Positions 24,461 through 43,894 of a stretch of DNA of 64,000 nucleotides are shown here, one piece after another. A program made the translations under genes and the position numbers. This DNA is from Burkholderiales bacterium (GTDB lineage: Bacteria; Pseudomonadota; Gammaproteobacteria; Burkholderiales; Burkholderiaceae_C). The DNA is taken from positions 99,306-163,305 of the forward strand of contig JACPUE010000066.1 of assembly GCA_016192425.1 (NCBI GenBank), given 5' to 3'. Each line of letters opens with the position of its first letter. Within the stretch, counting starts at the first letter, position 1. Under the pieces are notes generated by a model. It was not told where the DNA came from. It made no database searches and worked only from the letters and a program-made list of their open reading frames with translations.

Positions 24461-25552
24461 TCAACCATGCGGCAGCACCTCTACCCGCAAGGCCCGCTCC
24501 ACCGGTGTGATCTGCACCTGCACGGGCAGCCCGAGTGCAATGGTCTGCGCATTGGTCTGCGTGTGCGGCGTGGCCTCGGTGCAGGTGTAGCTGGCGGCCC
24601 GGCCGCTGCGCCACACCGCCAGGGCCAGCGGAAGCATCCACTGGTCGGCCAGGTGCGGGCCCAGTGCGCCTTGGCTGCGCTGGTAGGCGTGCACCTCATT
24701 CGCCAGCCGCTTGGCCACCTGCTCGGCCGACAGGCTGCGTTCGCCCAATTGGCAGAAGACTTCGGTGATGTGGGCGTGTTCCAGTGTAGCGATCAGTGCA
24801 TTGCCCGGTCCTTCGTTTTGGCGTGTCGGCGGTTGGCGCAACTGGCCTGCCTCGCACGTCCAGCCCATGCGCTGGCCCAGCGTTTCCAGCTCACGCGGAA
24901 CAATGCTGCGCGCCAGGCCGGGTGCCACGGCTTCGCACCAGGCGTTTTGCAGCGGGCCGCGTTCCATCACATCCACAGGGGCCAGCGGCTGCGCGGTGGA
25001 TAAGGGGGGCGTGATGTGCGCCACCAGCTCGCCACCCCCTGCAGGGAAGAAGCCGCGCCGCAGCAGTTGCAACTCCAGCCCCACGCCCAGCCGCCGCACC
25101 AGCGGGGCAAAGGCGCGCTCCAGAAAATCAAACGGCGGTGCCATCGGGTTGTGCGTGCCACCCAGCAACTGCACGCGGCTCTCGCCATCGGCCAGCATCA
25201 GCGCAGGCAGCACGGTCTGCAGAACCAGCAGGCAACTGCCCGCCGTGGCAATCTGAAAGCGGTAGTCCCCGCCCCGCACCGTGCCAGGCGTGAACTGCAG
25301 CGCTTGCGAGTTCAGCTCAGCGCCATCAGCCTGCCCGCCACACACGGCCGCCGCTGCCTGTACGCAGGCCAGGTGCTGCCGCATCAGCCCTGGCTTGGGC
25401 CGTCCGGCGCGGATGCGCGTAATGTGCAACGGCCGCCCGGTGACCATGGACAGGGCCAGGCCCGTGCGCAGGATCTGGCCGCCGCCTTCGCCGGTAGAGC
25501 CGTCGAGGGTGAGGGGGAGCATGTTGTGAGAGGGGGAAAGTGTCAGGTTCAT
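24461..25552 (-). CDS. rtcA: RNA 3'-terminal phosphate cyclase
   Basis: Aligns with E. coli RtcA (…[24 protein letters not shown]…RAGRPKPGL…). The start overlaps the upstream stop codon (TGATG). An alternative start 30 nt downstream is possible. Confidence 0.9.
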
Positions 25553-27378
25553 CAGCTCATGTAAAAAACGTCGCCATGGGGCGTGAAGGGCAAACGCCGT
25601 CCAGGAGCCAGCAGGTAGGCGTGCGGACGGCGCACGCTCAGGTGGTCGCAGTCGGCGTCGGTAATGATCAGCAGGGGGCCGTCCTTCGGAAAGTTCGTGC
25701 TGGTTTCCAGCAGTGTGATGGCAGGCTGCAGCATCGTGCCGCCACGGCCTTTGATTTCTACGCGGTGCGCGATGTCTTGCGCAAGCAGGTAGCCCAGGTC
25801 GTAGGGCGCCGCATCGCAGCACACCACGCGCACGGCGGGCACTTCCTTGGCCTCGGCATAGCTGGCGATGCTGCCCAGGGCCTTGGCCAGGGTGTGTTTG
25901 TCCATCGATCCAGAGGTGTCCAGCACCACGCCAAAGGTGCGTCCTTCCAGCCAGCGCGTGTCGGGCCCTGCATACGGGCGTGGAATGTCTGGCGTGGCCG
26001 ACTGGCGGCGGCTCAGCCGCGCATAGGTTCGGCGGGTTTCGATCGGTGGAAAGTGGTGGTCAAACCACCGCGCCAGCTCTACCTCCCACGGAACGGGCGG
26101 CTGCAATAGTGCACGGATTTCTTCCAGCAAGCCCTTGGGCAACAGGCCACGGCCTTGGGTTTCATGCAGCATCAGGCCTTTGCCCAACTGCTCTTTGTAG
26201 AAGGCATCCAAGTCGGTAAAGGGCGCTCGCTCAGTAGAAATCTTTCTGTCCAGCATGTCGCCTTGCCGTCCCGCCAGGGTTAGCAGCTTGCGCATGCGGC
26301 GCAGATCTAACACGATGCGGTCATACACTTCTTCCGCCGACAGGCCGCGCAGGTTCAGGTCGTGCAGTAGCCCCAGCGCAGGGGCGCTGCCCACTTGCAT
26401 CTGGATCAGCCAGTCGTTGATGACGTAGTCGCACGCCACGTTCCACAGATACGGGTCGCGCCCTTGCCGTCGGCCCATGTGCCGCAGTGCTACGTGCAGG
26501 ATTTCGTGTGCCAGCACAAAGCGGGTTTCCTGCTCGGTTAGCCCGGCAGCCGGGTTGAGGTAGATGATGCGCAGGGTTTCGTCCACTGCGCCGACCATGA
26601 TTTCCTCGCAGCGGCACAGTTCGGCGTCTTCCTGAATCTCGAAGGCCGCCACCATGGAACCTAGCAGTGGAAAGCTGCTGATAAACCAGCTGCGGGCACG
26701 CTCCGTCACGCTGCGGGGCATGCTGCGTGTGTCAGTACCCAGGGCTGTACGGGTGCCCGCTGCGATCTCCACCGCCTGTGAGACTGAATTGGCAATGCCT
26801 GCGGCAAACACTTCGCTCCAGCTTTGCTGCGATGACAGGACGCCATGGCGGACAGCAGGGACTGTCTGTTGGAGCCACGCATCTGGGGTTTCCAGGCTGG
26901 TGGCCTTGGGGCCTGCCAGCCCCAGGCCTTCGGCCCAAGTGGGCACGTCGGCTTCGCAGAACTGGCGGTACCAGCGGTCTTCATCCCACGCAGGCGCGTC
27001 GGCAGGCATCTGCATGTCTTGCGGGCATGCGCCGAACTTGACAGACGCCAGAAAGCGCGTGGTCACAACATCGCACGCTGCGCACCATGACGCCCAGTTG
27101 CCCCGGTCACTCTGGAACAGTTCCATGGCGTAGCTAAGTACACCTCGTGCCAACACGAAGGCCCATTCGGGGGCCGTGGCGTGGCGCTTGGGGTGCACAT
27201 GGATGGTGCCGCTCTTGAGCACCACAATCCAGCCTGCAGCAGGGCACTGGGATGCTGCAGTGCGCACCCAGCTTGCGCGCCGTGCCAGCGGGCCGAAGAT
27301 GGGGTGTGCGAGCACCATGGCCATGCCTGCTTCGTAGGCCTGGGTGGCAGGGTTGGTCTTGTGGTGGGGCTTGGCCAT
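25552..27378 (-). CDS. VWA-domain protein with an N-terminal HExxH metallopeptidase-like domain (DUF2201-like; predicted MoxR partner)
   Basis: Carries an HEILHVALRH motif. C-terminal MIDAS motif VVLDTSGSM. 608 aa. Confidence 0.7.
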   Translation of the reverse strand: MAKPHHKTNPATQAYEAGMAMVLAHPIFGPLARRASWVRTAASQCPAAGWIVVLKSGTIHVHPKRHATAPEWAFVLARGVLSYAMELFQSDRGNWASWCAACDVVTTRFLASVKFGACPQDMQMPADAPAWDEDRWYRQFCEADVPTWAEGLGLAGPKATSLETPDAWLQQTVPAVRHGVLSSQQSWSEVFAAGIANSVSQAVEIAAGTRTALGTDTRSMPRSVTERARSWFISSFPLLGSMVAAFEIQEDAELCRCEEIMVGAVDETLRIIYLNPAAGLTEQETRFVLAHEILHVALRHMGRRQGRDPYLWNVACDYVINDWLIQMQVGSAPALGLLHDLNLRGLSAEEVYDRIVLDLRRMRKLLTLAGRQGDMLDRKISTERAPFTDLDAFYKEQLGKGLMLHETQGRGLLPKGLLEEIRALLQPPVPWEVELARWFDHHFPPIETRRTYARLSRRQSATPDIPRPYAGPDTRWLEGRTFGVVLDTSGSMDKHTLAKALGSIASYAEAKEVPAVRVVCCDAAPYDLGYLLAQDIAHRVEIKGRGGTMLQPAITLLETSTNFPKDGPLLIITDADCDHLSVRRPHAYLLAPGRRLPFTPHGDVFYMS

Positions 27379-27385
27379 GATGCAT

Positions 27386-28450
27386 TCAGGTGGTCTTGGC
27401 CTGTCGTTCCACCAGGCGCGGAAGGTCGCGTACCACTTCGATCATGTACCAGGCAGGCAGCGTTTGTCCGGACTCTTCGGCCACGGCAATTTGGGCCATC
27501 TCCAGGCTGATCTGGGCCAAGTCTTTTAACATGGCTTTGGATCGGTGTACCAGTGCCTGTAGCTCGCCGGTGCTCGTGTTCTTGTCCCGCGGCAGGGCCT
27601 TGAGCAGCCGGGCACGAAACGCCTGTGCCAAGAAGTACAGCACGTCGCGGTCCTCGGGTGCGTGGGGCCAGCGGGCATCGCCCTTGAAAATGGCTTCCAG
27701 ACGGTGCCGGTCTGCCGCCAGCTTGCCAAAGGCTTTGAACTGCGCTGCATGCTGGGGCGTGAGGCAGCCATGGGCCATGGCTTCCACCATCGAGGTGGGT
27801 GGCGCGTCGCCAAACGCATGCAGCGCATCGCTGAGCATGTGCCACGAGCGAGGCGTGGAAAACGGTTCCTCATGCTTGGGCGGAGCGCTCCACAGGTGAT
27901 CCGGGCGCTGCTGCAGGTACTCCAGCACCATGGGATGGATGGCGTTGGCCGTGGCCCAGTTCAGCCATTCCGAGGCCGATACCTTCATGTGCACATGCAC
28001 CATGCGGTTCATCAATGCCGACGACATGGGTTTGACGATAGCGGAGTCTTGCGCCCGGTTGCCTGCACCGATCACGATAGAGCCTTCAGGCAGCGTGTAT
28101 TCGCCCACGCGGCGGTCATGAATCAGGCTATAGAAAGCCTTTTGCACATCCTGGGAGCATGCGTTGAGCTCGTCTAGAAAGATGCAGTAAGGCTCCTTGC
28201 GCGCAATCATGGCGGGTGGGCAAAAGCGGCTCACGCCGTCGAGGATCTGGGGCACGCCCATCAGATCCTCAGGGGCCAACTGGCTTCCCAGCAGGGAGAC
28301 ACACTCCAGCCCTACGCTGCGCGCGAACTGCTCTACCAGAGCCGACTTGCCAACGCCTGGAGGGCCCCAGATGAATACGGGGCGGGTGATGGCAACGTTC
28401 AGCAGGAATTCGGTGAGCTGCGAAGGCGAAAGCGCGTGGACGGTTTGCAT
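27386..28450 (-). CDS. MoxR-like AAA+ ATPase
   Basis: Walker A GPPGVGKS. Walker B IFLDELN. Confidence 0.8.
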   Translation of the reverse strand: MQTVHALSPSQLTEFLLNVAITRPVFIWGPPGVGKSALVEQFARSVGLECVSLLGSQLAPEDLMGVPQILDGVSRFCPPAMIARKEPYCIFLDELNACSQDVQKAFYSLIHDRRVGEYTLPEGSIVIGAGNRAQDSAIVKPMSSALMNRMVHVHMKVSASEWLNWATANAIHPMVLEYLQQRPDHLWSAPPKHEEPFSTPRSWHMLSDALHAFGDAPPTSMVEAMAHGCLTPQHAAQFKAFGKLAADRHRLEAIFKGDARWPHAPEDRDVLYFLAQAFRARLLKALPRDKNTSTGELQALVHRSKAMLKDLAQISLEMAQIAVAEESGQTLPAWYMIEVVRDLPRLVERQAKTT

Positions 28451-28481
28451 GATGTTCTTGTCGTTATTTCGGTGAATGTCG

Positions 28482-29312
28482 TCAGCGGTGGTAGCGCAGC
28501 ACAGTGTCGTGCAACAGCGCATCCAGCGTGGCGTGACTGGGTACGGGCAGTGGCTGCACAGGCTCGGCCGCATTGCGGGCCAGCTCGGCTTCGATAAAGG
28601 CATGGATGCCGGACCAGCGGGGGCTGGTGGCAGCCTCGTCGGCGCGCATCTTTATCTCCAGCAGTGCGTTGATCTCATCGACCAGCGCAGCGTCGTGCAC
28701 GGGGTGCAGCGTGTGCTGGGCCAGCTCGGCAAAGCGCATGGGCGGCACGCCGGGTTGCGTGCGGATCCAGCGTGCGGCCAGCAGCGGGCGCAGCACGTAC
28801 AAGTACTTTTTGTAGCGCACCTCGTCAGCTTGCAAATGCTCGCGGAAGTTCTTCTTGGCCATGGCCGCGTAGTGGTGCCAGCCCTTGGCGTTGGAGAACA
28901 CCTGCGCCGCCAGCGTGCGGAACTGCGCCATCGTGTCACCCTCTTCGCGGTACACGATGGGCGAGCCCAGCCATTCGAGCAGCGTGGGGTTGGATTCGCG
29001 CAGCAGCCCCAGCGCCTTGCGCAGGTCCCAACCGTTCACATCCAGGTCCCCACTGATTGGCAGCTCGATCACATCACGCCCCGGCGCAATGGTCAGGTAC
29101 CAGGGCAGCCGGTGCACGTAGATAAAGCGCACGTCGTAGTCGCTGTCGGGTGAGGCAAAGCCCCAGCCCCGGCTGCCAGATTCGCAGGCGAAGAGGACTG
29201 TCACGCCGTGCGTGGACTCGATGCGCTGCAGCTCCTGCATCACCTGTGCGCGCATGTGGGGCTCCACCGGGTGGGAGGAGCGCAGCATTTCCTGTTGGTC
29301 TGTTTTTTGCAT
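28482..29312 (-). CDS. DNA polymerase beta-superfamily nucleotidyltransferase of the RNA-repair-associated family
   Basis: GS…D.D motif (ACESGSRGWGFASPDSDYDVRF). Confidence 0.65.
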   Translation of the reverse strand: MQKTDQQEMLRSSHPVEPHMRAQVMQELQRIESTHGVTVLFACESGSRGWGFASPDSDYDVRFIYVHRLPWYLTIAPGRDVIELPISGDLDVNGWDLRKALGLLRESNPTLLEWLGSPIVYREEGDTMAQFRTLAAQVFSNAKGWHHYAAMAKKNFREHLQADEVRYKKYLYVLRPLLAARWIRTQPGVPPMRFAELAQHTLHPVHDAALVDEINALLEIKMRADEAATSPRWSGIHAFIEAELARNAAEPVQPLPVPSHATLDALLHDTVLRYHR

Positions 29313-29317
29313 AAAAT

Positions 29318-29365
29318 GAGCTGTATCGCTTGTTGGATAAGCGCTTGAAGCTATCAAAAGTGTAG
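29318..29365. repeat. AT-rich motif, inverted pair (intergenic, between rtcB and the nucleotidyltransferase gene)
   Basis: GAGCTGTATCGCTT-GTTGG-ATAAGCGCTTGAAGCTATCAAAAG. Confidence 0.7.
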
Positions 29366-29408
29366 TGAGCCAATAGTGCGGTGCTGTCACCAGCGCCGCA
29401 CAGGGCGG

Positions 29409-30632
<1,224 letters not shown>

Positions 30633-30661
30633 ATCGTTTTTTCGTTCTTTCGTTTTTTTGT

Positions 30662-31402
30662 TCATTGAACCATTCCGCGCGCTGCGGCCTGGGCGTAGGT
30701 TTTCAGTTCATCGTCGTTCTTCACATTCCGGATGAAGGCATCCATGCGTGCCTGCAGTTCACCAGGGCGGTTCAGGTGCACTCCCTCGTGCCCGATCCCA
30801 TGCAACGCCGATACCTGTGCTTCGCGCCAAGGCATGGCCAGCATTGCGCAGAACACCTGCCACATTGCGTCGCGCCATTCGGGGATGTGCTTGGCATTCC
30901 AGAACGTGGGCCACACGTCAAACCACATGTAGCTCACGAAGTACAGCCGATCGCTTCGGCTTCCGATGGTGTTCGGCGCGGTGTCCAGGCGCGGGCCCAG
31001 GCAGTCGCGCCATAAAGTGGGCAGGGCCTGCACCATGCGCATCGCGTCGGCCAGGGGCACGGAAGGGTCGTTCACCATGTGCGGGATGTCTCCCGCGTTG
31101 TTGCTCATCACATGGTTCAGGCCCATGCCGACCTGATCGTCGCTGTAAGGCGCCAGGTCCGTTCCCGCATTGGCGAACAGCACGGTCTGGACGTGCGTCC
31201 ATTGCAGCGGCGTGGCTTCGAACTCCGGCTCGTCGATCAGCCAATACCACTCCTGCCCGCTCTTGTCGGGCACGGGGCGGTCGAACAGGTAGCGCAGGGC
31301 CGCGCTGTAGACCGCTGGATCCAGGCCGACAGATGCGCACGTGGCGGGTGTGGTGTCCCGCTGCAAACGCTTTTCTCTTGCAGTTGGTTTTTTGTTCTTC
31401 AT
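30662..31402 (-). CDS. hypothetical Trp-rich protein; no recognisable family
   Basis: 246-aa ORF directly upstream of rtcB on the same strand. Coding-like codon usage. Confidence 0.5.
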   Translation of the reverse strand: MKNKKPTAREKRLQRDTTPATCASVGLDPAVYSAALRYLFDRPVPDKSGQEWYWLIDEPEFEATPLQWTHVQTVLFANAGTDLAPYSDDQVGMGLNHVMSNNAGDIPHMVNDPSVPLADAMRMVQALPTLWRDCLGPRLDTAPNTIGSRSDRLYFVSYMWFDVWPTFWNAKHIPEWRDAMWQVFCAMLAMPWREAQVSALHGIGHEGVHLNRPGELQARMDAFIRNVKNDDELKTYAQAAARGMVQ

Positions 31403-31429: not shown

Positions 31430-32572
31430 TCAGCGCATTTTCACCAGGCCATTGAGCACCTGATCCAGGCCGCCAAACACCGAGATCTTGTCGATCCGCT
31501 CGGCCACGCGCTCCAGCGTCTCCAGCTCCTTCATACGCAGGGCGACGGGGTTGTCTTCCATCACCTTGGCGGTGTTGAGCAGCGAGCGCGTGGCGGCGGT
31601 TTCCTCGCGGCGGCGGATCACGTTGGCCTCGGCCTGTTTCTGGGCCTGCACCACCTGGGTCAGGATGGTTTTCATCTCGCCGGGCAGCACGATGTCCTTC
31701 ACGCCCACGCTCTCCAGCTGCATGCCATAGGGCTGCAGCTTGGCGGCCATGTGCGCGGTCACCACCTCGTCGATCACCGTCTTGTTCTCCAGCAACTCAT
31801 CAAGCGTGCGGGTGCCCACGGCGGCGCGCAGCGCAAACTGCAGCTCGCGGTAGAGGTGGTCGGCAGGCTTTTGCAATTGGGCAAAGGCGCGCAGCACATC
31901 GGTGTAGCGGTAGGTGGCGCACAGGTTCAGGCGCAGGCTTACCTTGTCGCGGGTCATGATGTCCTGGCCCGATACCTCTACGGCTTGCAGGCGCAGATCC
32001 ACCAGCTCCACGGCGACGGTGCGGCCGTACTTCCAGAAGGCGTAGGTGCCTGCGGTCAGCAGGCGCTCGACCTTGCCGTCCACCGTCAGCAGCGCGCACT
32101 GGCCTTCGGGCACTTGCACCTGCAGCACGCCGGTCAGGCCCGTCACCGCACGCTGGCGCAGTTGGGTTTGGGTCAGGCGCGCCACCAGGTCGGCGGGCAG
32201 TTCGGCGCCCGCTTGCAGGTCCACCACCTGGACGGTCACCTGGACCAGGCCCTTCCAGTACAGGCGGCGGGTGCCAGGGGGCAGGATTTCCACCAGCACA
32301 CCGTTCTCGCTGCGCAGGCCCACTTCGGTTTCCGACAGATTCACCTGCACAAACTCGGCAGCCACTACGGCGGGCTCCTGCGCCATCAGGTACTCGGCCA
32401 GGCCGTGGGTGAAGGCGGGTTGTTCCAGGGCGAAAGTCTCCGCACGCAACTGATCCATGCCTGCAAACAGCCAGTAGGTGCCGCTGTGCAGCACGCGGTC
32501 AAAGCTGCCATTGCGCAGCAGCAGGGCGCGTTCGTTCTTTTTCACCGTGGTGCGTTGGAACAACTTCAGCAT
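31430..32572 (-). CDS. SPFH/Band-7 (stomatin-like) domain protein with a long N-terminal extension
   Basis: C-terminal SPFH signature …GVKDIVLPGEMKTILTQVVQAQKQAEANVIRRREETAATRSL…. Confidence 0.7.
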   Translation of the reverse strand: MLKLFQRTTVKKNERALLLRNGSFDRVLHSGTYWLFAGMDQLRAETFALEQPAFTHGLAEYLMAQEPAVVAAEFVQVNLSETEVGLRSENGVLVEILPPGTRRLYWKGLVQVTVQVVDLQAGAELPADLVARLTQTQLRQRAVTGLTGVLQVQVPEGQCALLTVDGKVERLLTAGTYAFWKYGRTVAVELVDLRLQAVEVSGQDIMTRDKVSLRLNLCATYRYTDVLRAFAQLQKPADHLYRELQFALRAAVGTRTLDELLENKTVIDEVVTAHMAAKLQPYGMQLESVGVKDIVLPGEMKTILTQVVQAQKQAEANVIRRREETAATRSLLNTAKVMEDNPVALRMKELETLERVAERIDKISVFGGLDQVLNGLVKMR

Positions 32573-32786
32573 TTTGTTTTCCTCTTTCTTCTTCGTTGTC
32601 GTATCGGGTTGCCGTTACAGCGATGGCGAGGTGCCAGGGGGCGCAGCCAGGGCCCTGCAGTGCGCCGTGGTTGCTGCCCCAATCCCCAGCGGGAAGGGCG
32701 GCAGCGTGGCTGGCTGCGGGTGCAGGCTGTGCCGGGTGCTGGCACAAACCGCCACCGGCTGACGGGGCGGGGCCTTGCGGCGGCGT

Positions 32787-32822
32787 CCAAAAAAACGCAA
32801 CCCTGGGGCCGCTCCCCGCGTT
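32787..32822 (-). terminator. rho-independent terminator / attenuator between the ncRNA and the rtc operon
   Basis: On the minus strand: AACGC-GGGGAGCGGCCCC-…GCGTT followed by TTTTTTT. Confidence 0.55.
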
Positions 32823-33125
32823 CGGCGGGTGGTCTTTCGACCGGTACTTCCAATCAAGGTCTTGCGACCGTGGGCAGGAATCGAACCTGCGACAGACCCC
32901 TTGCGGGGGTTGCTCTACCAGACTGAGCTACCAGTGGTGACACGCCTGGAGTCGCACCGGGCACGTCCTTTCGGAGTGGCTACTGCAGCCGTGCCGTTAT
33001 CCAGCGCTTGCGGTGTGCGGCATGCAGGGCATCGACAGGGACCGAAGGCCCCGGACTTCCGGCACCGGCGGGGCGGACTTCTGTCCCAACCCCGGCCTGT
33101 GAGCGGTCACCGCTTGCGCTGGATG
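32823..33125 (-). ncRNA. Y-RNA (YrlA)-like non-coding RNA containing a tRNA-like module, transcribed from a sigma-54 promoter
   Basis: No credible ORF. GC-rich and highly structured. Contains a canonical D-arm and T-arm (see the 32868–32945 feature). Confidence 0.4.
32868..32945 (-). other. tRNA-like module (canonical D-arm and T-arm, non-canonical anticodon region, imperfect acceptor pairing)
   Basis: Minus-strand read: …CCACTGG-TA-GCTC-AGTCTGGTA-GAGC-A-ACCCCCGCAAGGGGT-CTGTC-GCAGG-TTCGATT-CCTGC-CCACGGT…. Confidence 0.5.
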
Positions 33126-33136
33126 CCTTGTCTATT

Positions 33137-33152
33137 GCCAGATGCGTGCCAG
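33137..33152 (-). promoter_or_regulatory. sigma-54 (-24/-12) promoter
   Basis: Minus-strand sequence TGGCACGCATCTGGCA versus consensus TGGCACG-N4-TTGCA; only one mismatch in the -12 element. Confidence 0.6.
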
Positions 33153-33281
33153 GTGGGTAGCCAGGGTGCCGCGAACTCATAACTTGTTGATTTGTATTGA
33201 TAAAAATCTGAATGCGCGGATGTTTTAGTTCATGGGTTATGAAAATACTAGAATTAAAGCTAAATAAATAGATTGATTTCC

Positions 33282-34910
33282 ATGCGCAAAAACAAGGTGG
33301 TGATCGGCTTTCTGGGCACGCAGCTCGACTCCGGCCGGGGCGCGGGGCGGTGGGAGAAGTGGCGCCCCACCGTGTCGCTGGTGCAGCACGAAGACGTGGT
33401 GATCGATCGGCTGGAGCTGCTCTACACCCTTGCGCACCAAGACCTGGCCCAGCTCGTGCAGGCCGACATGGCCATTGCCTCGCCCGAGACCACGGTGAAC
33501 CTGGTGCCCATGCCCATTGCCGACCCGTGGGACTTTGGCGAGGTGTATGCGCAGCTCTTTGATTGGACGCAGGCCTACCGCTTCGACACCGAGCGCGAGG
33601 AGTACTGGACGCACATCACCACCGGTACGCACGTGGCGCAGATCTGCCTGTTCTTGCTGGTGGAGTCGCGCCGCATTCCGGGCGTGCTGGCGCAGACTTC
33701 GCCCCCGAAGCGCCAGCAGGCGGGCGACCCCGGCAGCATTGCGCTGATCGACCTGGACCTCTCGCGCTACGACGTGATTGCCCAGCGCTTTGGTGCAGAG
33801 CAGCGCGATGCGGTGCAGTTCTTGAAAAGCGGCATCGCCACGCGCAATGCGCGCTTCAACGCCCTGATCGACGAGGTGGAGCGCGTGGCCGTGCGCTCGC
33901 GCGCACCCATCCTGTTCACCGGGCCAACGGGTGCGGGCAAGTCGCACCTGGCGCGGCGCATGTTTGAACTGAAGAAAGCCCGCCACCAGGTGGCAGGCGA
34001 ATTCGTCGAAGTGAACTGCGCCACGCTGCGCGGCGACGGCGCGGCATCCACCCTGTTCGGCCACAAGAAGGGCGCCTTTACGGGTGCGGCGGCCGACCGG
34101 CCCGGCCTGCTGCGTGCGGCGCACCAGGGCGTGCTGTTCCTCGACGAAATAGGCGAGCTGGGCCTGGACGAGCAGGCCATGCTGCTCAAGGCCGTGGAAG
34201 AAAAGCGCTTTTACCCCATGGGCAGTGACCGTGAGGTGGAGAGCGACTTCCAGCTGGTAGCAGGCACCAACCGCGACCTGCGCACCGAAGTCGCGGCCGG
34301 GCGCTTTCGCGAAGACCTGTTTGCGCGCATCAACCTATGGAGCTATGTGCTGCCCGGCCTGGCGCAGCGGCCCGAAGACATTGAGCCGAATGTGGACTAT
34401 CTGCTCACGCGCGTCGCCGCCGAGCTGGGCGGCGCGGTGCGATTCACCAAAGAAGCCAAGGCCGCGTACCTGCGCTTTGCCACGGGCCCCGAGGCCCTGT
34501 GGAGCGGCAACTTTCGCGACCTGGCCGCCAGTGTGACCCGGCTGGCCACGCTGGCAGAAGCAGGCCGCATTGGCGAATCGCTGGTGCAGGCCGAAGTGGC
34601 ACGGCTGCGCTGGCTATGGCAGCCGCAGGGCGCGGGGGCAGCCGCTGCACCCGATGGCGAAGCGGCGCTGCAGGCCTTGGTGGGTGCCGCTGCGTGGGAT
34701 GCCATGGACCTGTTTGACCGCCTGCAACTGCAGGCCGTGGCCGGGGTGTGCCAGCGTGCGCGCAGCCTGTCGGATGCCGGGCGGGTGCTGTTCCAGGCCT
34801 CGCGCACGCAGCGCTCCGTGGTCAACGATGCAGACCGGCTGCGCAAGTACCTGGCGCGGTTTGGGCTGACGTGGGAGCAGGTGGCGCAGTCGATGGCCAC
34901 GGCCGAGTGA
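33282..34910 (+). CDS. rtcR: sigma-54-dependent transcriptional regulator RtcR (CARF–AAA+–HTH)
   Basis: Collinear with E. coli RtcR from MRKNKVVIGFLGT… through …NDADRLRKYLARFGLTWEQV. Carries a GAFTGA motif. Confidence 0.9.
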   Translation: MRKNKVVIGFLGTQLDSGRGAGRWEKWRPTVSLVQHEDVVIDRLELLYTLAHQDLAQLVQADMAIASPETTVNLVPMPIADPWDFGEVYAQLFDWTQAYRFDTEREEYWTHITTGTHVAQICLFLLVESRRIPGVLAQTSPPKRQQAGDPGSIALIDLDLSRYDVIAQRFGAEQRDAVQFLKSGIATRNARFNALIDEVERVAVRSRAPILFTGPTGAGKSHLARRMFELKKARHQVAGEFVEVNCATLRGDGAASTLFGHKKGAFTGAAADRPGLLRAAHQGVLFLDEIGELGLDEQAMLLKAVEEKRFYPMGSDREVESDFQLVAGTNRDLRTEVAAGRFREDLFARINLWSYVLPGLAQRPEDIEPNVDYLLTRVAAELGGAVRFTKEAKAAYLRFATGPEALWSGNFRDLAASVTRLATLAEAGRIGESLVQAEVARLRWLWQPQGAGAAAAPDGEAALQALVGAAAWDAMDLFDRLQLQAVAGVCQRARSLSDAGRVLFQASRTQRSVVNDADRLRKYLARFGLTWEQVAQSMATAE

Positions 34911-35306: not shown

Positions 35307-35368
35307 CGCATGCGTGCGTTAGTGGCATGGCTTGTGATCGAGTCATCCCTGCAAGAAAGGAGTGCATC

Positions 35369-36325
35369 ATGACGACGCGCTCAATCGAACACGTGGCGGC
35401 AATGCACTCGTTGCCGCTGCTGCGCTACCCGCGCACGCCCCATCTGGAGGGCTCGCGTCACCAAAGCGGTGATGCGCCCGATGTACAGCCGCTGGCCCCG
35501 TTGGTGGGACAGCATGCAGTCATCGAGGAAAAAATGGATGGTGCCAACTGTGCGCTGTCGTTCACCGAAGGGGGCGAGCTGTGCCTGCAGTCGCGCGGGC
35601 ACTACCTCACGGGTGGCGCGCGAGAGCGGCAGTTTGCGGCGCTGCACCCTTGGGCACGCGTGCACGAAGCGGCTTTGCTGGCCTGCCTGCAAGACCGCTA
35701 CGTGCTGTATGGCGAGTGGATGTTCGCCAAGCACGCCATGTTTTACGACCGGCTGCCGCACTACCTGCTCGAATTTGACGTGTGGGATCGCGTGGAGCAG
35801 TGCTTTCTGTCCACACCACGGCGCCATGCGTTGCTGGCAGGTTTGCCGGTGGTGTCGGTGCCTGTGGTGTATGAGGGGGCAATGCCTGCACGGGCGGAGT
35901 GGCTGTGGTCGTTGGTGGGGGCTTCGCTGGCGCGCACGCCGCATTGGAACCAGACGCTGGACGATACCGTGCAGCGTCTGCAGTTGCCGCTGGATTTGTG
36001 CCGACAGCAAAGCGATCCGTCGTCACTGGCTGAAGGGCTGTATGTGAAGCTGGAGGATACGCACCAGGTGCTGGCACGGTTCAAGCTCGTGCGCTGGGAC
36101 TTTGTGCAACACATTCTGGATTCGGGCTCGCACCACAGCGAACGGCCCGTGGTACCCAATGCGCTGGCAGCGGGGGTGAACCTGTATGCCCCTACGCTGA
36201 ACGTGCAATGGGCGGACATGGGGCTGCACCGCGTGCTGGGGCTGGAGGCGCTGCAAGCGCACCATGCCCAGTGGGCCGCGGTGCAGCGCACACAGAAAGG
36301 AGGTGCCCTATGGCGCCGCAAATGA
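35369..36325 (+). CDS. ATP-dependent RNA ligase (Rnl family)
   Basis: Nucleotidyltransferase motif I (EEKMDGANCAL). N-terminal YPRTPHL. RBS AAAGGAG. Confidence 0.75.
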   Translation: MTTRSIEHVAAMHSLPLLRYPRTPHLEGSRHQSGDAPDVQPLAPLVGQHAVIEEKMDGANCALSFTEGGELCLQSRGHYLTGGARERQFAALHPWARVHEAALLACLQDRYVLYGEWMFAKHAMFYDRLPHYLLEFDVWDRVEQCFLSTPRRHALLAGLPVVSVPVVYEGAMPARAEWLWSLVGASLARTPHWNQTLDDTVQRLQLPLDLCRQQSDPSSLAEGLYVKLEDTHQVLARFKLVRWDFVQHILDSGSHHSERPVVPNALAAGVNLYAPTLNVQWADMGLHRVLGLEALQAHHAQWAAVQRTQKGGALWRRK

Positions 36326-37500
36326 TGGAGGCAGCGCCGTATGCGGTGCTGCGGGGGCTGGTGCCGGCCCCTCACCAGCTACTGGACTGGGCCGCGTGCT
36401 GCGAGGCTATCGGTGCGCTACGCGCACTAGATACGACGCCGCAGGATCCGGTGCACCATGCCGAAGGAAATGTGGGAACGCACACGCGCTGGGTGCTGGA
36501 GTGCCTGCGCGAGGATGCCTACTTTCAGCAGGCCGCGTCCGATCGGCAGTGGGTGATGTTCATGGCGGCTTTGCTGCACGACATTGCCAAGCCTGCCACC
36601 ACGGTGGTGGACGAGGCCACGGGGCGCATTCGCCAGCCGGGGCATTCCAGCCGTGGGGCAGTGGATGCCCGCGTGCTGCTGTGGGTGGCTGGATGCCCGT
36701 GGGCGCTACGTGAGGCGGTATGCCGCTTGATTGCGGTGCACCAGCAGCCGTTCTTTGTGTGGCACTCGCACCAAGGCGTTGCGCCCGAGTATGTGGTGCG
36801 CAAGCTGTCGTGGGGGGTGTGCTGGGCTGAGTTGCTGGCACTGGTACGGGCCGACATGCGCGGGCGTATTTGCCAGGATCAGCAGCGCCATCTGGACGAC
36901 CTGCAACTGCTGGAAGAGCTGGTGCGCGAAGAAGGCGCGTGGGAGCGGCCTCGCCCCTTTGCAGACGCGCATACCGCGCTGCGTTACTTCAGGGGTACCA
37001 ACCTGTACCCCATGGAGCCGCTGTATGCCAGCCCTGGCTCGACCGTGACGGTGATGTGCGGCCTGCCAGCGGCGGGCAAAAACCACTGGGTGGCCAGGCA
37101 CCGACCGCATTGGGCGGTAGTGTCGTTTGACGACGTGCGCGAGGCATTGGGCCTGGCGCATGGCGACAACGAGGGGCAGGTAGCGCACCACGCACAGGAG
37201 CAGGCGCGCGCCTTGCTGCGGGCGCGGCAGCCGTTTGTGTGGAATGCGACACACCTGTCGCAGTCCATGCGCGACAAGACGCTGGATCTGCTGTATGCCT
37301 ACGATGCGCAGGTCGAGATCGTGCACCTGGAGCAGCCGCTGCCCGAACTGCTGCGGCGCAACCACCGGCGCGACACCACGCTGACCAACGCGGCCCTGCT
37401 GCGCATGCTGCACCGCTGGGAGGCCCCGTGGCCGACCGAGGCGCATCGCGTGGTATACGAGGGAGGCAATACAGCGCCAGCGGGAAATCGCGTACGGTAA
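36310..37500 (+). CDS. HD-domain phosphoesterase fused to a P-loop polynucleotide kinase (HD-Pnk-like end-healing enzyme)
   Basis: HD motifs (…HHAEGNVGTHT…LLHDIAKP…). Walker A GLPAAGKN in the C-terminal half. Overlaps the ligase stop codon. Confidence 0.7.
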   Translation: MAPQMMEAAPYAVLRGLVPAPHQLLDWAACCEAIGALRALDTTPQDPVHHAEGNVGTHTRWVLECLREDAYFQQAASDRQWVMFMAALLHDIAKPATTVVDEATGRIRQPGHSSRGAVDARVLLWVAGCPWALREAVCRLIAVHQQPFFVWHSHQGVAPEYVVRKLSWGVCWAELLALVRADMRGRICQDQQRHLDDLQLLEELVREEGAWERPRPFADAHTALRYFRGTNLYPMEPLYASPGSTVTVMCGLPAAGKNHWVARHRPHWAVVSFDDVREALGLAHGDNEGQVAHHAQEQARALLRARQPFVWNATHLSQSMRDKTLDLLYAYDAQVEIVHLEQPLPELLRRNHRRDTTLTNAALLRMLHRWEAPWPTEAHRVVYEGGNTAPAGNRVR

Positions 37501-38181: not shown

Positions 38182-38644
38182 GAAGCACGCCAGACCGCCG
38201 CTGGTGCAATCTGGGAAACCAGGCACTGGAGGAACGTCCGGACTGCACAGGACAGCGTAGCAGCTAACGGCTGCCCACCGTGAGGTGAGGATCAGAGCAA
38301 CAGAGACGAGTCCGAGCGTGGATGTGCCCATCGGGTGTTCTGCGGTTCGCCAGCGCAAGCTGGCGCGGCTGGCGCAAGCCAGACGGTGACGGGCGAAAGC
38401 CCGGCACGACGCAGCCACCCCGGGTGCGAAGCGCCCGGGGTGAAACGGGCAATCTCTACGCGCAGCAATACCAAGTAGGCCAGCCACGGGAGCAGGGCGA
38501 CCTCTCTCGACCTTGTGGATCCGCAGGGAGAGCTGGCGGGTAGGTAGCACCGAGCCGGGTGGGCGACCCCCGGCCCAGAGTAATGGCGGTCACGCTGCGG
38601 GCAACCGCAGTGCACAGAATCCGGCTTATCGGCGCGCTTCACAC
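38182..38644 (+). ncRNA. rnpB: RNase P RNA (bacterial type A)
   Basis: P4/universal elements are present: GGAGGAACGTCCGGAC…, GGGGTGAAACGGG…, ACAGAATCCGGCTTATCGG. A P1 helix pairs GAAGCACGCC with GGCGCGCTTC. Confidence 0.8.
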
Positions 38645-42229: not shown

Positions 42230-43894
42230 TCAGTTGTTGCCGGGCTGCTGCGCGCGGATGCGCTCCACATGCGCGATCAGCGAGCGCTGGGCCAGCGGCC
42301 ACATGCGTGGCGGCACGTCGGCGTAAGCCAGTTCCACCCACTGCTCCACCGTGCCTTCGGGCAGTGCCTGCATGGCGGCGATGACCTTGGCCTCGCGCGC
42401 CAGGCGGTGGCCCTTGAGCTGGGCGATGGCGCCGCGTGCCTCGCCCAGCACATGGCCGTGCGCGGGCAGGATGAACGCCACGCCGTGTTCGGCGCAGAGC
42501 GCATCGAGCCGGTCGAGCGCGTCGAGGTAGTCGGCCATGTTGCCGTCGGGCGGGTTGATGATGGTGGTGCTGCCGTTGAGGATGTGGTCGCCACTGAACA
42601 GCAGGCCGTCCTCGCGCAGCAGCAGGCACACATGGTTGGCCGCGTGGCCCGGCGTGTGCACCACCTGCAGGGTGTGGGTGATTTCGCCGTCCAGCCCTTT
42701 GCCAGTAAGCGTGAGCAGCTCATTGTTTGATAGCGCCCGGTCGGGCGTGAACTGGCTGTCAGCGCGCGCCGTGGGGGCCGAGGGCAGGCCCAGGATGGGC
42801 GGCGTGGCGCGGCCCGCGCGCTGGCACATCTGCTGCAGCGGCTTGCTGCCTGGCGAGTGGTCGGGGTGCGAATGCGTGCATACGATCATGCGGATGTCGC
42901 CGCCCGCGGCGCGCCACAGGCGCTCCAGGTGCTCGACGTCTGCCGGGCCGGGGTCGATGGCGACGTAGCCCGTGGCCGGGTCGCCCACCAGGTAGCTGTT
43001 GGTGCCGGGGCCGGTCATCACGCCGGGGTTGGGGGCGGTCAGGCGCTGCACGTTCTTCAGCAGCGGCACGGCGCGCTCGCTCTGCCAGTCGAGCGGGTGG
43101 GCGATCTGCCCGTCGGGGCAAACCAGGGCCAGCTCGCCGAAGGGCATTTCGTCCTCCATGTAGCGCGCTTCCTTGCCATTGAGCAGGCCCGCGCGCGGGC
43201 AGCTCGTCCACAGCGGGGCTTCGCTCACGGCGCAGGCGGCCAGCACATCGTCCACGCGCGCGAAGGGCGCCAGCCGCTGCAGCGTGCGGATGGTCGGGAA
43301 GATCATGAAGAAGCCGCCGCCCGCGTGGCGCTCCAGGGCGTCCTGCGGGCGCACCCATTGGGGCTCGAACTGCTCGGCCTCGTCGGCCACGGGCGTCTGG
43401 CCTTCGGGCATGCGCGCCACCAGAAACGGCACATCAAAGCGCTTGGGCAGGTCGCGGTCGGTGATCCAGCGCGCCAGGGTGAACACCCCGTCGGCGGCCA
43501 GCCGCAGGCCGCGCGCCTGGCATTGTGCGGCGAACGGGGCCTGGCGGTCGAGCGCGGCGATGTCGTCGGCCCCGGCCCAGCGGCCATCGGCATGGCGCGC
43601 CAGCAGCACGCCCAGCTCCTCGAAGCTCTCGCGGATGGCGGCAATGGCCTCGGTGAGCTGTTCGTCGCCCTGCGTGGCGCGGCGTGCGGCGGCGTGGTGC
43701 GATTGTGTGTCCAGCGCGTCGATGCCGCCGCCGGGGAACACGTAGGCGCCCGGCGCAAAGCTGGCTTGCTGCGAGCGCCGCGTCATCAGCACCTCCAGCC
43801 CCTGCGCGCCATCGCGCAGCAGCAGCACGGTGGCGGCGTTCAGGGTGGGGACGGGGGGGCGGGGCGGGTGCAGGAGCTGGCTGGGGCGTGTCAT
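42230..43894 (-). CDS. NUDIX hydrolase fused to an MBL-fold metallo-hydrolase
   Basis: Nudix box …AIRESFEELGV…. C-terminal HSHPDH and HTPGH motifs. Confidence 0.7.
   Translation of the reverse strand: MTRPSQLLHPPRPPVPTLNAATVLLLRDGAQGLEVLMTRRSQQASFAPGAYVFPGGGIDALDTQSHHAAARRATQGDEQLTEAIAAIRESFEELGVLLARHADGRWAGADDIAALDRQAPFAAQCQARGLRLAADGVFTLARWITDRDLPKRFDVPFLVARMPEGQTPVADEAEQFEPQWVRPQDALERHAGGGFFMIFPTIRTLQRLAPFARVDDVLAACAVSEAPLWTSCPRAGLLNGKEARYMEDEMPFGELALVCPDGQIAHPLDWQSERAVPLLKNVQRLTAPNPGVMTGPGTNSYLVGDPATGYVAIDPGPADVEHLERLWRAAGGDIRMIVCTHSHPDHSPGSKPLQQMCQRAGRATPPILGLPSAPTARADSQFTPDRALSNNELLTLTGKGLDGEITHTLQVVHTPGHAANHVCLLLREDGLLFSGDHILNGSTTIINPPDGNMADYLDALDRLDALCAEHGVAFILPAHGHVLGEARGAIAQLKGHRLAREAKVIAAMQALPEGTVEQWVELAYADVPPRMWPLAQRSLIAHVERIRAQQPGNN
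42706..42738 (+). repeat. AT-rich motif copy inside the NUDIX–MBL gene
   Basis: AGTAAGCGTGAGCAGCTCATTGTTTGATAGCGC. Confidence 0.6.

Follow-up and report, generated by a model that had tools for sequence, protein, structure and literature searches.

The Locus and Its Structured RNA

The DNA considered here is a stretch of 64,000 nucleotides from a Burkholderiales bacterium (contig JACPUE010000066.1; the whole stretch is called the window in what follows), in which a spacer of 709 bp separates the start codon of rtcR (ATG at 33282, plus strand) from that of the first gene of a divergent RNA-repair operon, encoding a Band-7/SPFH protein (ATG at 32572, minus strand). On the minus strand this spacer carries a conserved structured RNA of 513 nt (33123-32611), which extends from its predicted start to about 40 nt before the Band-7 start codon and is composed of five modules: a 5' domain, two tRNA-like modules in tandem (TLM1 and TLM2), a pair of hairpins and a 3' domain, every domain being backed by covariation in the alignments described below. 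An earlier reading of the window, made from its letters alone (the sequence-only reading), had placed here a sigma-54-driven noncoding RNA with an embedded tRNA mimic, between rtcR and the operon, and had likened it to the Y RNAs, with a length of about 330 nt and a 3' end at 32787. The noncoding, structured and syntenic character of this RNA, as predicted from sequence, is retained; its membership of the YrlA/Y RNA group is not, and the conserved structure runs well past the proposed 3' end. The absence of a credible open reading frame (ORF) from the spacer is likewise upheld; only 3–9 of 80 related loci preserve the frame of the mechanical ORFs across 90% or more of the ORF length.

The features of the spacer, all on the minus strand and given in the order of transcription, are the following.

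33180-33192, minus: predicted IHF-consensus site AATCAACAAGTTA (WATCAANNNNTTR), 41 nt upstream of the -24 element
33136-33151, minus: predicted sigma-54 -24/-12 motif TGGCACGCATCTGGCA, one mismatch from TGGCAC-N5-TTGCW
33000-33123, minus: 5' domain, multi-helix, closed by UCCAGCG/CGCUGGA, with invariant junctions GCUCACAGG, CCGGUG and AUGCCGC
32935-32995, minus: TLM1, with acceptor GGCACG/CGUGUC, D-like hairpin, GAAA-capped short arm, T-arm, discriminator A and CCA (32937-32935)
32950-32956 and about 32980-32988, minus: elbow co-change positions of TLM1, in the T-loop and the D-like loop
32871-32933, minus: TLM2, with 3-bp acceptor, U8-A9, D-arm, 5-bp anticodon-like stem capped by C+GCAA, variable loop CUGUC and canonical T-arm
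32858-32869, minus: variable GNRA hairpin GGUCGCAAGACC, varying in length and sequence and absent in several loci
32831-32842, minus: invariant hairpin GGUCGAAAGACC, with a stem that is the same in 69 of 69 aligned sequences and does not covary
32611-32826, minus: 3' domain, with nested long-range helices GCGGGG/CCCCG and CAG-CGGUGGCGG/UCGCCAUCG-CUG and internal hairpins
32789-32795, minus: run of seven T, the tail of a previously proposed terminator, in a variable insert inside the conserved helix GCGGGG/CCCCG
32573-32610, minus: A/G-rich linker with a ribosome-binding site (AAGAGGAAA) before the Band-7 ATG, unstructured, with no predicted pairs

Conservation and Covariation

A search with the Band-7 protein yielded 80 Burkholderiales loci at 74–97% identity (the genome scan kept those of at least 74%), among which the window is closest to Acidovorax; a separate search for homologous proteins gave relatives at 77% identity or more only, and the wider diversity was reached by tblastn on plasmids and chromids. 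When the DNA upstream of these genes is aligned, conservation is seen to extend beyond the tRNA-like part, from the predicted start to about 40 nt before the Band-7 start codon, and the anchors of the RNA are present in 75 of the 75 protein-first Burkholderiales loci with enough upstream sequence. By means of these anchors 70 distinct sequences were parsed; covariance models were used for the tandem modules (R1) and for the 5' domain (R2), and pairs were counted.

As the alifold structures derive from the same alignments on which they were scored, the unslid register is favoured in the following percentages of paired cells, and the many compensatory changes are independent of that. In the tandem modules 95.2% of the cells are paired (71 sequences) against 34–50% in slid controls, none of 500 shuffles reaching as high, and 22 of 33 pairs have changed on both sides; in the window R1 detects one copy only, which scores 126.7 bits. 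For the 5' domain (34 pairs) the values are 92.2% against 37–50%, with 22 pairs changed on both sides and again 0 of 500 shuffles as high, the R2 score being 124.5 bits for the window and 55 bits for B. cenocepacia. The 3' domain, with 36 alifold pairs, is paired in 94.4% of the cells against 31–49% when slid, and 24 of its pairs show changes on both sides. Single-sequence folds of the window modules are uninformative (z = -0.7 to -1.2), that of the 5' domain giving z = -2.95. A search for long-range helices between the 5' and 3' domains, requiring 4 or more consecutive pairs, at least 85% pairing and at least 2 covarying columns, found none, so that the modules look autonomous. The module already recognised by its D- and T-arms, whose loss from orthologous spacers would have spoken against the sequence-only reading, is both syntenic and covarying in more than 100 loci.

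The Promoter Region

Taken alone, the sigma-54 motif is not above chance, the window containing 4 such matches where 5.15 are expected; a second match with one mismatch from the consensus, TGGCACATCTGCTGCA at 42822-42837 on the plus strand, belongs to this chance level. The promoter becomes convincing through comparison of orthologues, because the motif is conserved at a fixed distance: TGGCAY-N5-TKGC or TCGC lies 48–49 nt ahead of a CTCACAG block in 34 of 34 loci of the sigma-54 type (the clade with rtcR upstream), and the motif is also found in the Citrobacter, E. coli, Burkholderia and Photobacterium loci. The IHF consensus occurs 40–42 nt upstream of it in 34 of 38 motif-bearing loci, Citrobacter among them. 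Consensus elements, an IHF consensus site and an enhancer-binding activator encoded nearby (rtcR) are thus all present, and a predicted IHF site and sigma-54 motif with the gene of a sigma-54 activator next door is the standard architecture. The predicted transcription start, at about 33125, abuts the first helix of the RNA.

The Two tRNA-Like Modules

TLM1, which had escaped the earlier reading, lies upstream of the module with the canonical D- and T-arms. Its acceptor stem has 6-7 bp, with 88–100% canonical pairs per position and 4–6 pair types at each (70 sequences), and is fully paired in 77% of the sequences, a share that drops to 13% if the 3' strand is shuffled; two-sided changes are seen in helices 1 and 2 of the R1 alignment. 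Across the family the T-arm carries GGUUCGANUCC, the short arm is GNRA-capped, and the D region is reduced to a small hairpin with a conserved GG in its loop, replaced in the sister clade by a single strand of 8–9 nt that also holds GG. The sequence N-CCA follows the module in 65 of 70 distinct sequences, the discriminator being A in 41, G in 14, U in 7 and C in 3. An acceptor stem with a T-arm and CCA is the classical minimal substrate of RNase P; within the window, an RNase P RNA gene (RF00010, 165 bits; 38182-38644, plus strand), with 463 nt and large insertions relative to the 367-position model, lies about 5 kb from the leader carrying this candidate substrate.

The copy of TLM1 in the window is degenerate, with a T-loop that reads UGCGACU and one C:A mismatch in the T-stem. 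All three carriers of the T-loop change U55 to G (the window and loci L010 and L028) also have AG for GG in the D-like loop, and in the remaining 25 sequences of that clade GG and UUCRA are both retained; this possible tertiary covariation, observed in 2–3 lineages only, has the look of a compensated elbow contact and not of decay. The general plan of TLM1, in which the acceptor stacks on the T-arm, the D region is reduced but contains GG, the anticodon is missing and N-CCA is encoded, resembles the tRNA-like domain of tmRNA and the RNase P minihelix. Unlike tmRNA, TLM1 lacks G3:U70, an mRNA-like part and pseudoknots (ARAGORN finds no tmRNA here), and its CCA is internal to the primary transcript, module 2 starting one nucleotide later.

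TLM2 is the module on which the earlier reading was based, and its description there proves accurate: the canonical D-arm TAGCTCAGTCTGGTAGAGCA (32930-32911) and T-arm GCAGGTTCGATTCCTGC (32890-32874) are present on the minus strand, the anticodon arm is abnormal (a 5-bp stem capped by C+GCAA), and the acceptor is imperfect, with 3 pairs only. Over the family the stems are 84–100% canonical and covarying, with an invariant D-arm and a covarying 5-bp stem of the anticodon type. Acceptor pairing amounts to 91–96% at positions 1–3, falls to 56% at position 4 and is about random (6–41%) elsewhere; the acceptor thus has 3–4 bp throughout and no CCA tail, although in the window its 3' strand happens to read CCA (32873-32871). 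The loop of the anticodon type occurs in two main forms, namely a GNRA tetraloop in 29 sequences (the rtcR-linked clade and a few others) and a 7-nt loop, mostly C/U-U-NNN-A-A with a freely varying triplet (GAU, CAU, GAA, CUC, AAC and others), in 33 sequences; the clade without adjacent rtcR keeps a loop of this second form. The loop being either a tetraloop or one of 7 nt with a freely varying triplet, the module does not decode.

To the search programs TLM2 strongly resembles a tRNA. The Rfam tRNA model (RF00005) matches 32871-32933 (minus strand) at 37.4 bits, over a cut-off of 29, along model positions 5–66 only and with a 4-nt insert at the position of the anticodon loop; relatives score up to 55 bits (for example L037:3674-3747). 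ARAGORN calls a tRNA-Cys(gca) at 32866-32938 (minus strand), the "anticodon" of which belongs to the GCAA tetraloop cap. Shared with canonical tRNAs are U8-A9, the D-stem GCUC/GAGC, the GG of the D-loop, the variable loop and the T-loop GGUUCGAUUCC; by contrast with these, TLM2 has neither a 7-bp acceptor followed by a discriminator and CCA or tail nor a 7-nt loop with a conserved anticodon, and it is embedded in a longer RNA. An actual tRNA gene, or the scar of an integration event, was rejected on the C+GCAA cap, the 3-pair acceptor, the missing 3' tail, the synteny and the compensatory evolution (71 sequences); the tRNA-fragment origin against which the sequence-only reading had warned is likewise contradicted by an element that is syntenic and covarying in more than 100 loci. 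Automatic annotation will nonetheless mislabel the family as tRNA or pseudo-tRNA, as gene finders call the element tRNA-Cys.

The Hairpins, the 3' Domain and the Supposed Terminator

Both GNRA-capped hairpins described earlier are there, GGTCGCAAGACC at 32869-32858 and GGTCGAAAGACC at 32842-32831 (minus strand), the former being the variable and the latter the invariant one. In the second the loop is GAAA, GCAA or GAGA, and the stem of GGUCGAAAGACC never covaries, which suggests sequence-specific recognition. Beyond it, the 3' domain terminates in the near-invariant block CUGUAACGGCA.

The strong intrinsic terminator that had been placed at 32787 does not survive comparison: its stem is weak (6 pairs, 4 of them G-C), a T-run of at least 5 is found in only 3 of 75 loci, and terminator-like sites are not enriched (2 found against 1.5 expected from shuffles). 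Because the T-run is not conserved and is enclosed by a conserved, covarying helix, with about 180 nt of covarying structure downstream of it, the proposed 3' end and the length of about 330 nt appear to be wrong. No conserved terminator is recognisable in the aligned sequences between the RNA and the Band-7 gene.

The Band-7 Partner and the Operon

The genes that flank the RNA are listed here, from rtcR through the operon in the order of transcription.

33282-34910, plus: rtcR, sigma-54 enhancer-binding activator with an RtcR/CARF N-terminal domain (Pfam RtcR 2.1e-80, Sigma54_activat 1e-48), divergent from the RNA
31430-32572, minus: Band-7/SPFH (slipin) protein, 380 aa (Pfam Band_7 1e-31)
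30662-31402, minus: ORF of 246 aa between Band-7 and rtcB, no Pfam or NCBIfam match
29409-30665, minus: RtcB RNA ligase (Pfam RtcB 9e-129)
28482-29390, minus: RlaP nucleotidyltransferase, RNA repair pathway pol-beta family (Pfam PF10127 6.9e-93)
27386-28603, minus: MoxR-like AAA+ ATPase (Pfam AAA_5 2e-13, bpMoxR 2.1e-5); ORF as listed, true start probably later
25552-27378, minus: DUF2201 metallopeptidase-like plus VWA-like protein (Pfam DUF2201_N 6.3e-21, DUF2201 2.6e-6)
24461-25822, minus: RtcA RNA 3'-phosphate cyclase (Pfam RTC 1.2e-73); ORF as listed, true start probably later

The association between the RNA and the Band-7 gene is also observed when the search starts from the RNA. A metagenome scan by the pattern of the 5' domain gave 80 loci, 29 of them true family members and 51 apparent chance matches; in 23 of the 24 loci with at least 900 nt downstream, a Band-7 gene follows on the same strand, 357–495 nt from the ATGCCGC block to the start codon, and the one remaining locus is apparently a chance match. 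The sister Burkholderiales clade has an HNH endonuclease gene in the upstream place of rtcR, and only RtcB follows Band-7 there; in Citrobacter and E. coli the order is (rtcR), sigma-54 leader, slipin and RlaP, with no RtcB alongside. The 246-aa ORF is missing from both the sister-clade and the enterobacterial operons. Band-7 follows the RNA in all four operon architectures, the VWA and MoxR genes, RtcB and even rtcR being dispensable. Because of the 23 RNA-first loci out of 24, and of its persistence without rtcR or without RtcB, the RNA-Band-7 pair is, as far as gene order tells, the invariant unit; the VWA protein, suggested earlier as a possible partner, is hence replaced in this role by the Band-7/SPFH protein.

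Homologous tandem modules occur in more distant Band-7 loci as well, R1 scoring 79.5 bits in Photobacterium and 75.6 bits in B. cenocepacia, where genuine tandem tRNA genes attain 59 bits at most; both loci combine sigma-54 motifs with tandem tRNA-like modules. With R2, the Citrobacter locus gave a correctly placed but insignificant match (11.8 bits, E about 0.9), and the Photobacterium, Subdoligranulum and E. coli loci gave none. The enterobacterial leader (L085:5680-6000 in E. coli, L081:5690-6000 in Citrobacter) is shorter and contains a single T-arm, after which comes a closed acceptor-like hairpin, the order known from YrlA; in E. coli it is present, unannotated, in 1632 of 5426 complete genomes (about 30%). 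The Subdoligranulum locus has two T-arms 24 nt apart. Judged by these sequence relationships, members of the family occur in Burkholderiales, Vibrionaceae, Enterobacteria and a Firmicute.

Hydrophobic segments are missing from the Band-7 protein (highest Kyte-Doolittle value over 19 residues, 0.97), which for this reason is probably soluble; a weak repeat of the beginning of the SPFH domain makes up its first 150 residues (BLASTP E = 0.002), so that, instead of a membrane stomatin, it is probably a soluble SPFH protein, possibly a duplicated one.

Other observations concern the surroundings of these operons. Downstream of rtcR, on its strand, the window holds an RNA ligase (PF09414) and a 430-aa protein (35327-37500, plus), the latter containing a kinase domain (AAA_33) and matching Pnkp and CCA-nucleotidyltransferase weakly; on domain content the two have the appearance of a second RNA-repair cassette of the heal-and-seal kind. 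The HNH gene of the sister clade is preceded by arrays that hold as many as 12 canonical tRNA genes (L037:134-2593; also L036, L050, L053, L056 and L064), the order in L037 being tRNA array, HNH (L037:2710-3483, PF14279), structured RNA, Band-7 and RtcB.

Class Identity

A noncoding RNA found near a Band-7 gene and RtcB and resembling a tRNA was predicted by Burroughs and Aravind in 2016 under the name b7a-tRNA, and was proposed to be functionally redundant with YrlA; in the source that cites it, a preprint of the Wolin laboratory, it figures as a prediction without experimental validation and is said to occur occasionally next to Rsr (bioRxiv 10.1101/312249). The RNA of the window lies about 40 nt from a Band-7/SPFH gene, within an RtcB repair neighbourhood, and has a strong tRNA resemblance (37.4 bits, and the ARAGORN call); on these sequence features it is very probably an Acidovorax member of the b7a-tRNA class. 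The class being known here from a one-sentence description, two differences can be named: the RNA of the window has two tandem modules in a 513-nt leader with 5' and 3' domains of its own, and a GNRA tetraloop takes the place of the anticodon loop in its clade. No further paper mentioning b7a-tRNA was found in the later literature, and Rfam 15 has no b7a-tRNA family, the spacer matching tRNA at the gathering threshold, YrlA below threshold and no other family. Compared with that one-sentence description, the multi-domain architecture may be undescribed. The Y-RNA analogy drawn in the sequence-only reading had already been made in the literature; its "Y-like RNA working with a different protein set" is not new, since it corresponds to the class predicted in 2016.

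Likeness to YrlA and YrlB is evident in the tRNA mimic with canonical D- and T-arms, in its place within an RtcR/sigma-54-controlled RtcB operon with which it would be co-transcribed, and in the neighbouring gene of a scaffold protein. The differences are that the partner gene is Band-7 and not Ro60, that the tRNA modules have the normal order, that there is no match to a Ro-binding stem model, and that the RNA is 4–5 times longer. The Rfam scan suggested earlier as a check gave for YrlA (RF02553) 21.1 bits (E = 0.095) against a cut-off of 69, in a local match (model positions 28–81) that covers T-arm 1, the junction and D-arm 2. The permuted order of YrlA (T-arm, closed acceptor stem-loop, D-arm) is not found in the window RNA: what stands between T-arm 1 and D-arm 2 is the 3' acceptor strand of TLM1, N-CCA and the 5' acceptor strand of TLM2, each strand pairing with a distant partner. 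No Ro60/Rsr gene was found within about 4 kb on the same strand, nor, in agreement with the earlier reading, any TROVE/Ro60 domain among the products of the 7 genes in the operon and of some 20 further long ORFs in the window, a scan that was not exhaustive. Membership of YrlA was rejected on score, on topology and on the lack of Ro60 among the ORFs scanned. A motif GNCGAAN0-1G near the 5' end of YrlA and YrlB has been linked to recognition by Ro60/Rsr (Chen et al. 2014, PMC4201824). The sequence GUCGAAAG within the invariant hairpin (32842-32831) fits it, albeit 3' of the tRNA-like part and with GCAA in about 40% of the relatives, and may be a coincidence.

A more distant likeness, by analogy only, is that to the vault particle, in which the shoulder of the major vault protein (MVP) is related to SPFH, TEP1 carries a TROVE domain and a vault RNA is present. 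Common to both would be an SPFH-type oligomeric protein and a small structured RNA, with TROVE and SPFH partners seemingly interchangeable.

Proposed Function and Alternative Explanations

RtcR is a sigma-54 activator and has a CARF domain that binds 5' tRNA halves carrying a terminal 2',3'-cyclic phosphate (PMC7790460); the Y RNAs of Salmonella are part of an rsr-yrlBA-rtcBA transcript (bioRxiv 10.1101/312249, PMC7790460), and the YrlA of M. smegmatis, whose acceptor has 7 bp, undergoes cleavage by RNase P and acquires CCA in vivo (PMC4201824). By analogy with these systems, activation of RtcR by tRNA halves ending in 2',3'-cyclic phosphate, as in Salmonella, would induce the leader together with the operon, and the RNA would be produced in that case alone. 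RNase P would then cut 5' of TLM1 (predicted between 32996 and 32995), where the determinants of a minihelix plus CCA are found, and another cut would fall in the A/G-rich linker, freeing the RNA from the leader. The tRNA-like pieces would bind the soluble Band-7 oligomer and serve in trans as scaffold or cofactor for RtcB and RlaP in the repair of broken tRNAs, the same role as has been proposed for Ro60-YrlA at the same position of the operon. We give this mechanism, a trans-acting ribonucleoprotein (RNP) with Band-7 as cofactor of RNA repair, an even chance of being right. Several observations weigh against it. The CCA of TLM1 is limited by lineage, being missing in B. cenocepacia, in Photobacterium and in 5 of the 70 Burkholderiales sequences; in the window the T-arm of TLM1 is weakened and does not form in the single-sequence fold; the enterobacterial and Subdoligranulum variants retain T-arm-type pieces only, which blurs the distinction of essential parts; the fixed position directly 5' of the Band-7 start, without a terminator, would suit a cis-acting leader equally well; and the b7a-tRNA class is, in its citing source, still a prediction (bioRxiv 10.1101/312249).

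The leader could indeed act in cis, as a structured 5' untranslated region that controls the stability, processing or translation of the Band-7-rtcB mRNA with no role in trans; it might offer RNase P or RNase E a site of entry or a roadblock, or bind a factor that recognises tRNAs. The RNA lies always directly upstream of Band-7, on the same strand and within 357–495 nt of it counted from the ATGCCGC block, and its 3' domain, followed by no conserved terminator, stops with the near-invariant CUGUAACGGCA about 40 nt from the start codon; we consider this explanation unlikely all the same, as the ribosome-binding site is in the unpaired linker and is not sequestered by any conserved helix, as 513 nt and five autonomous modules far exceed the needs of known attenuators, and as the Y RNAs of the Salmonella operon are co-transcribed too and yet act in trans. 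Still less probable is a sentinel or decoy, in which the tRNA-like modules would be bait for tRNA-targeting ribotoxins: although RtcR binds 5' tRNA halves with cyclic phosphate ends (PMC7790460) and TLM2 keeps a 7-nt loop of the anticodon type in the clade without adjacent rtcR, the triplet varies freely, so that no specific anticodon nuclease is mimicked, and the idea is weakened by the tetraloop that TLM2 carries in the rtcR-linked clade, the window included, which is the opposite of what a feedback bait for RtcR would predict.

The original proposal, an independent small RNA of about 330 nt ending at a T-run terminator (32789-32812) and being either a stand-alone Y-like RNA or an RtcR-controlled attenuator, has become very improbable. 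A stem followed by seven T does exist in the window, and partial termination in this strain is conceivable; against it are the T-run shared by 3 of 75 loci, its place in a variable insert of a conserved helix, the roughly 180 nt of structure beyond and a number of terminator-like sites not above the shuffle expectation. A true Y RNA of the YrlA type, binding a Ro60/Rsr encoded elsewhere in the genome, might draw on the weak local RF02553 match, on the fit of GUCGAAAG to the putative Rsr motif (PMC4201824) and on the occasional b7a-tRNA beside Rsr reported in bioRxiv 10.1101/312249; with 21.1 bits against 69, no TROVE domain among the ORFs scanned, about 40% of hairpins with a GCAA loop that breaks the motif, and strict linkage to Band-7, its probability is slight. 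As to a decoding tRNA-Cys gene, a pseudo-tRNA or a tRNA fragment left by integration, to which the ARAGORN call and the 37.4 bits of the tRNA model would point, it is scarcely credible in view of the 5-nt C+GCAA cap, the 3-pair acceptor, the lack of a 3' tail, the unconserved triplet and the compensatory evolution over 71 sequences.

Implications

Put together, these data admit a wider interpretation, which is offered tentatively and which we hold to be a good deal less likely than the RNP mechanism by itself: the b7a-tRNA would be one module of an undescribed modular Burkholderiales RNA of about 510 nt, absent from Rfam, and TLM1 a mini-tRNA with a selected N-CCA that is released by RNase P and assembles with the soluble Band-7 oligomer into an RNP, vault-like or Ro-like, for the repair of tRNAs. 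If this is true, TLM1 might be recognised by the CCA-adding enzyme, by the RlaP nucleotidyltransferase or even by a synthetase, and tRNA mimics of the Y-RNA type may derive from tandem modules, the junction of T-arm 1, acceptor strands and D-arm 2 matching the permuted order of YrlA. In the sister clade, a back-up array of tRNA genes is physically joined to a tRNA-repair module.

For the Band-7 version of such systems, the locus provides a map backed by covariation, with a promoter, five modules and a candidate RNase P site, in which constant parts (the T-arms, the GGUC hairpin and the junction blocks) can be told from free ones (the anticodon loop and the variable hairpin); genetics should be easy, because a reduced form sits in about 30% of complete E. 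coli genomes. RNAs that mimic tRNA would be central to two alternative bacterial RNA-repair modules, one of Ro60 with YrlA and the other of Band-7 with b7a.

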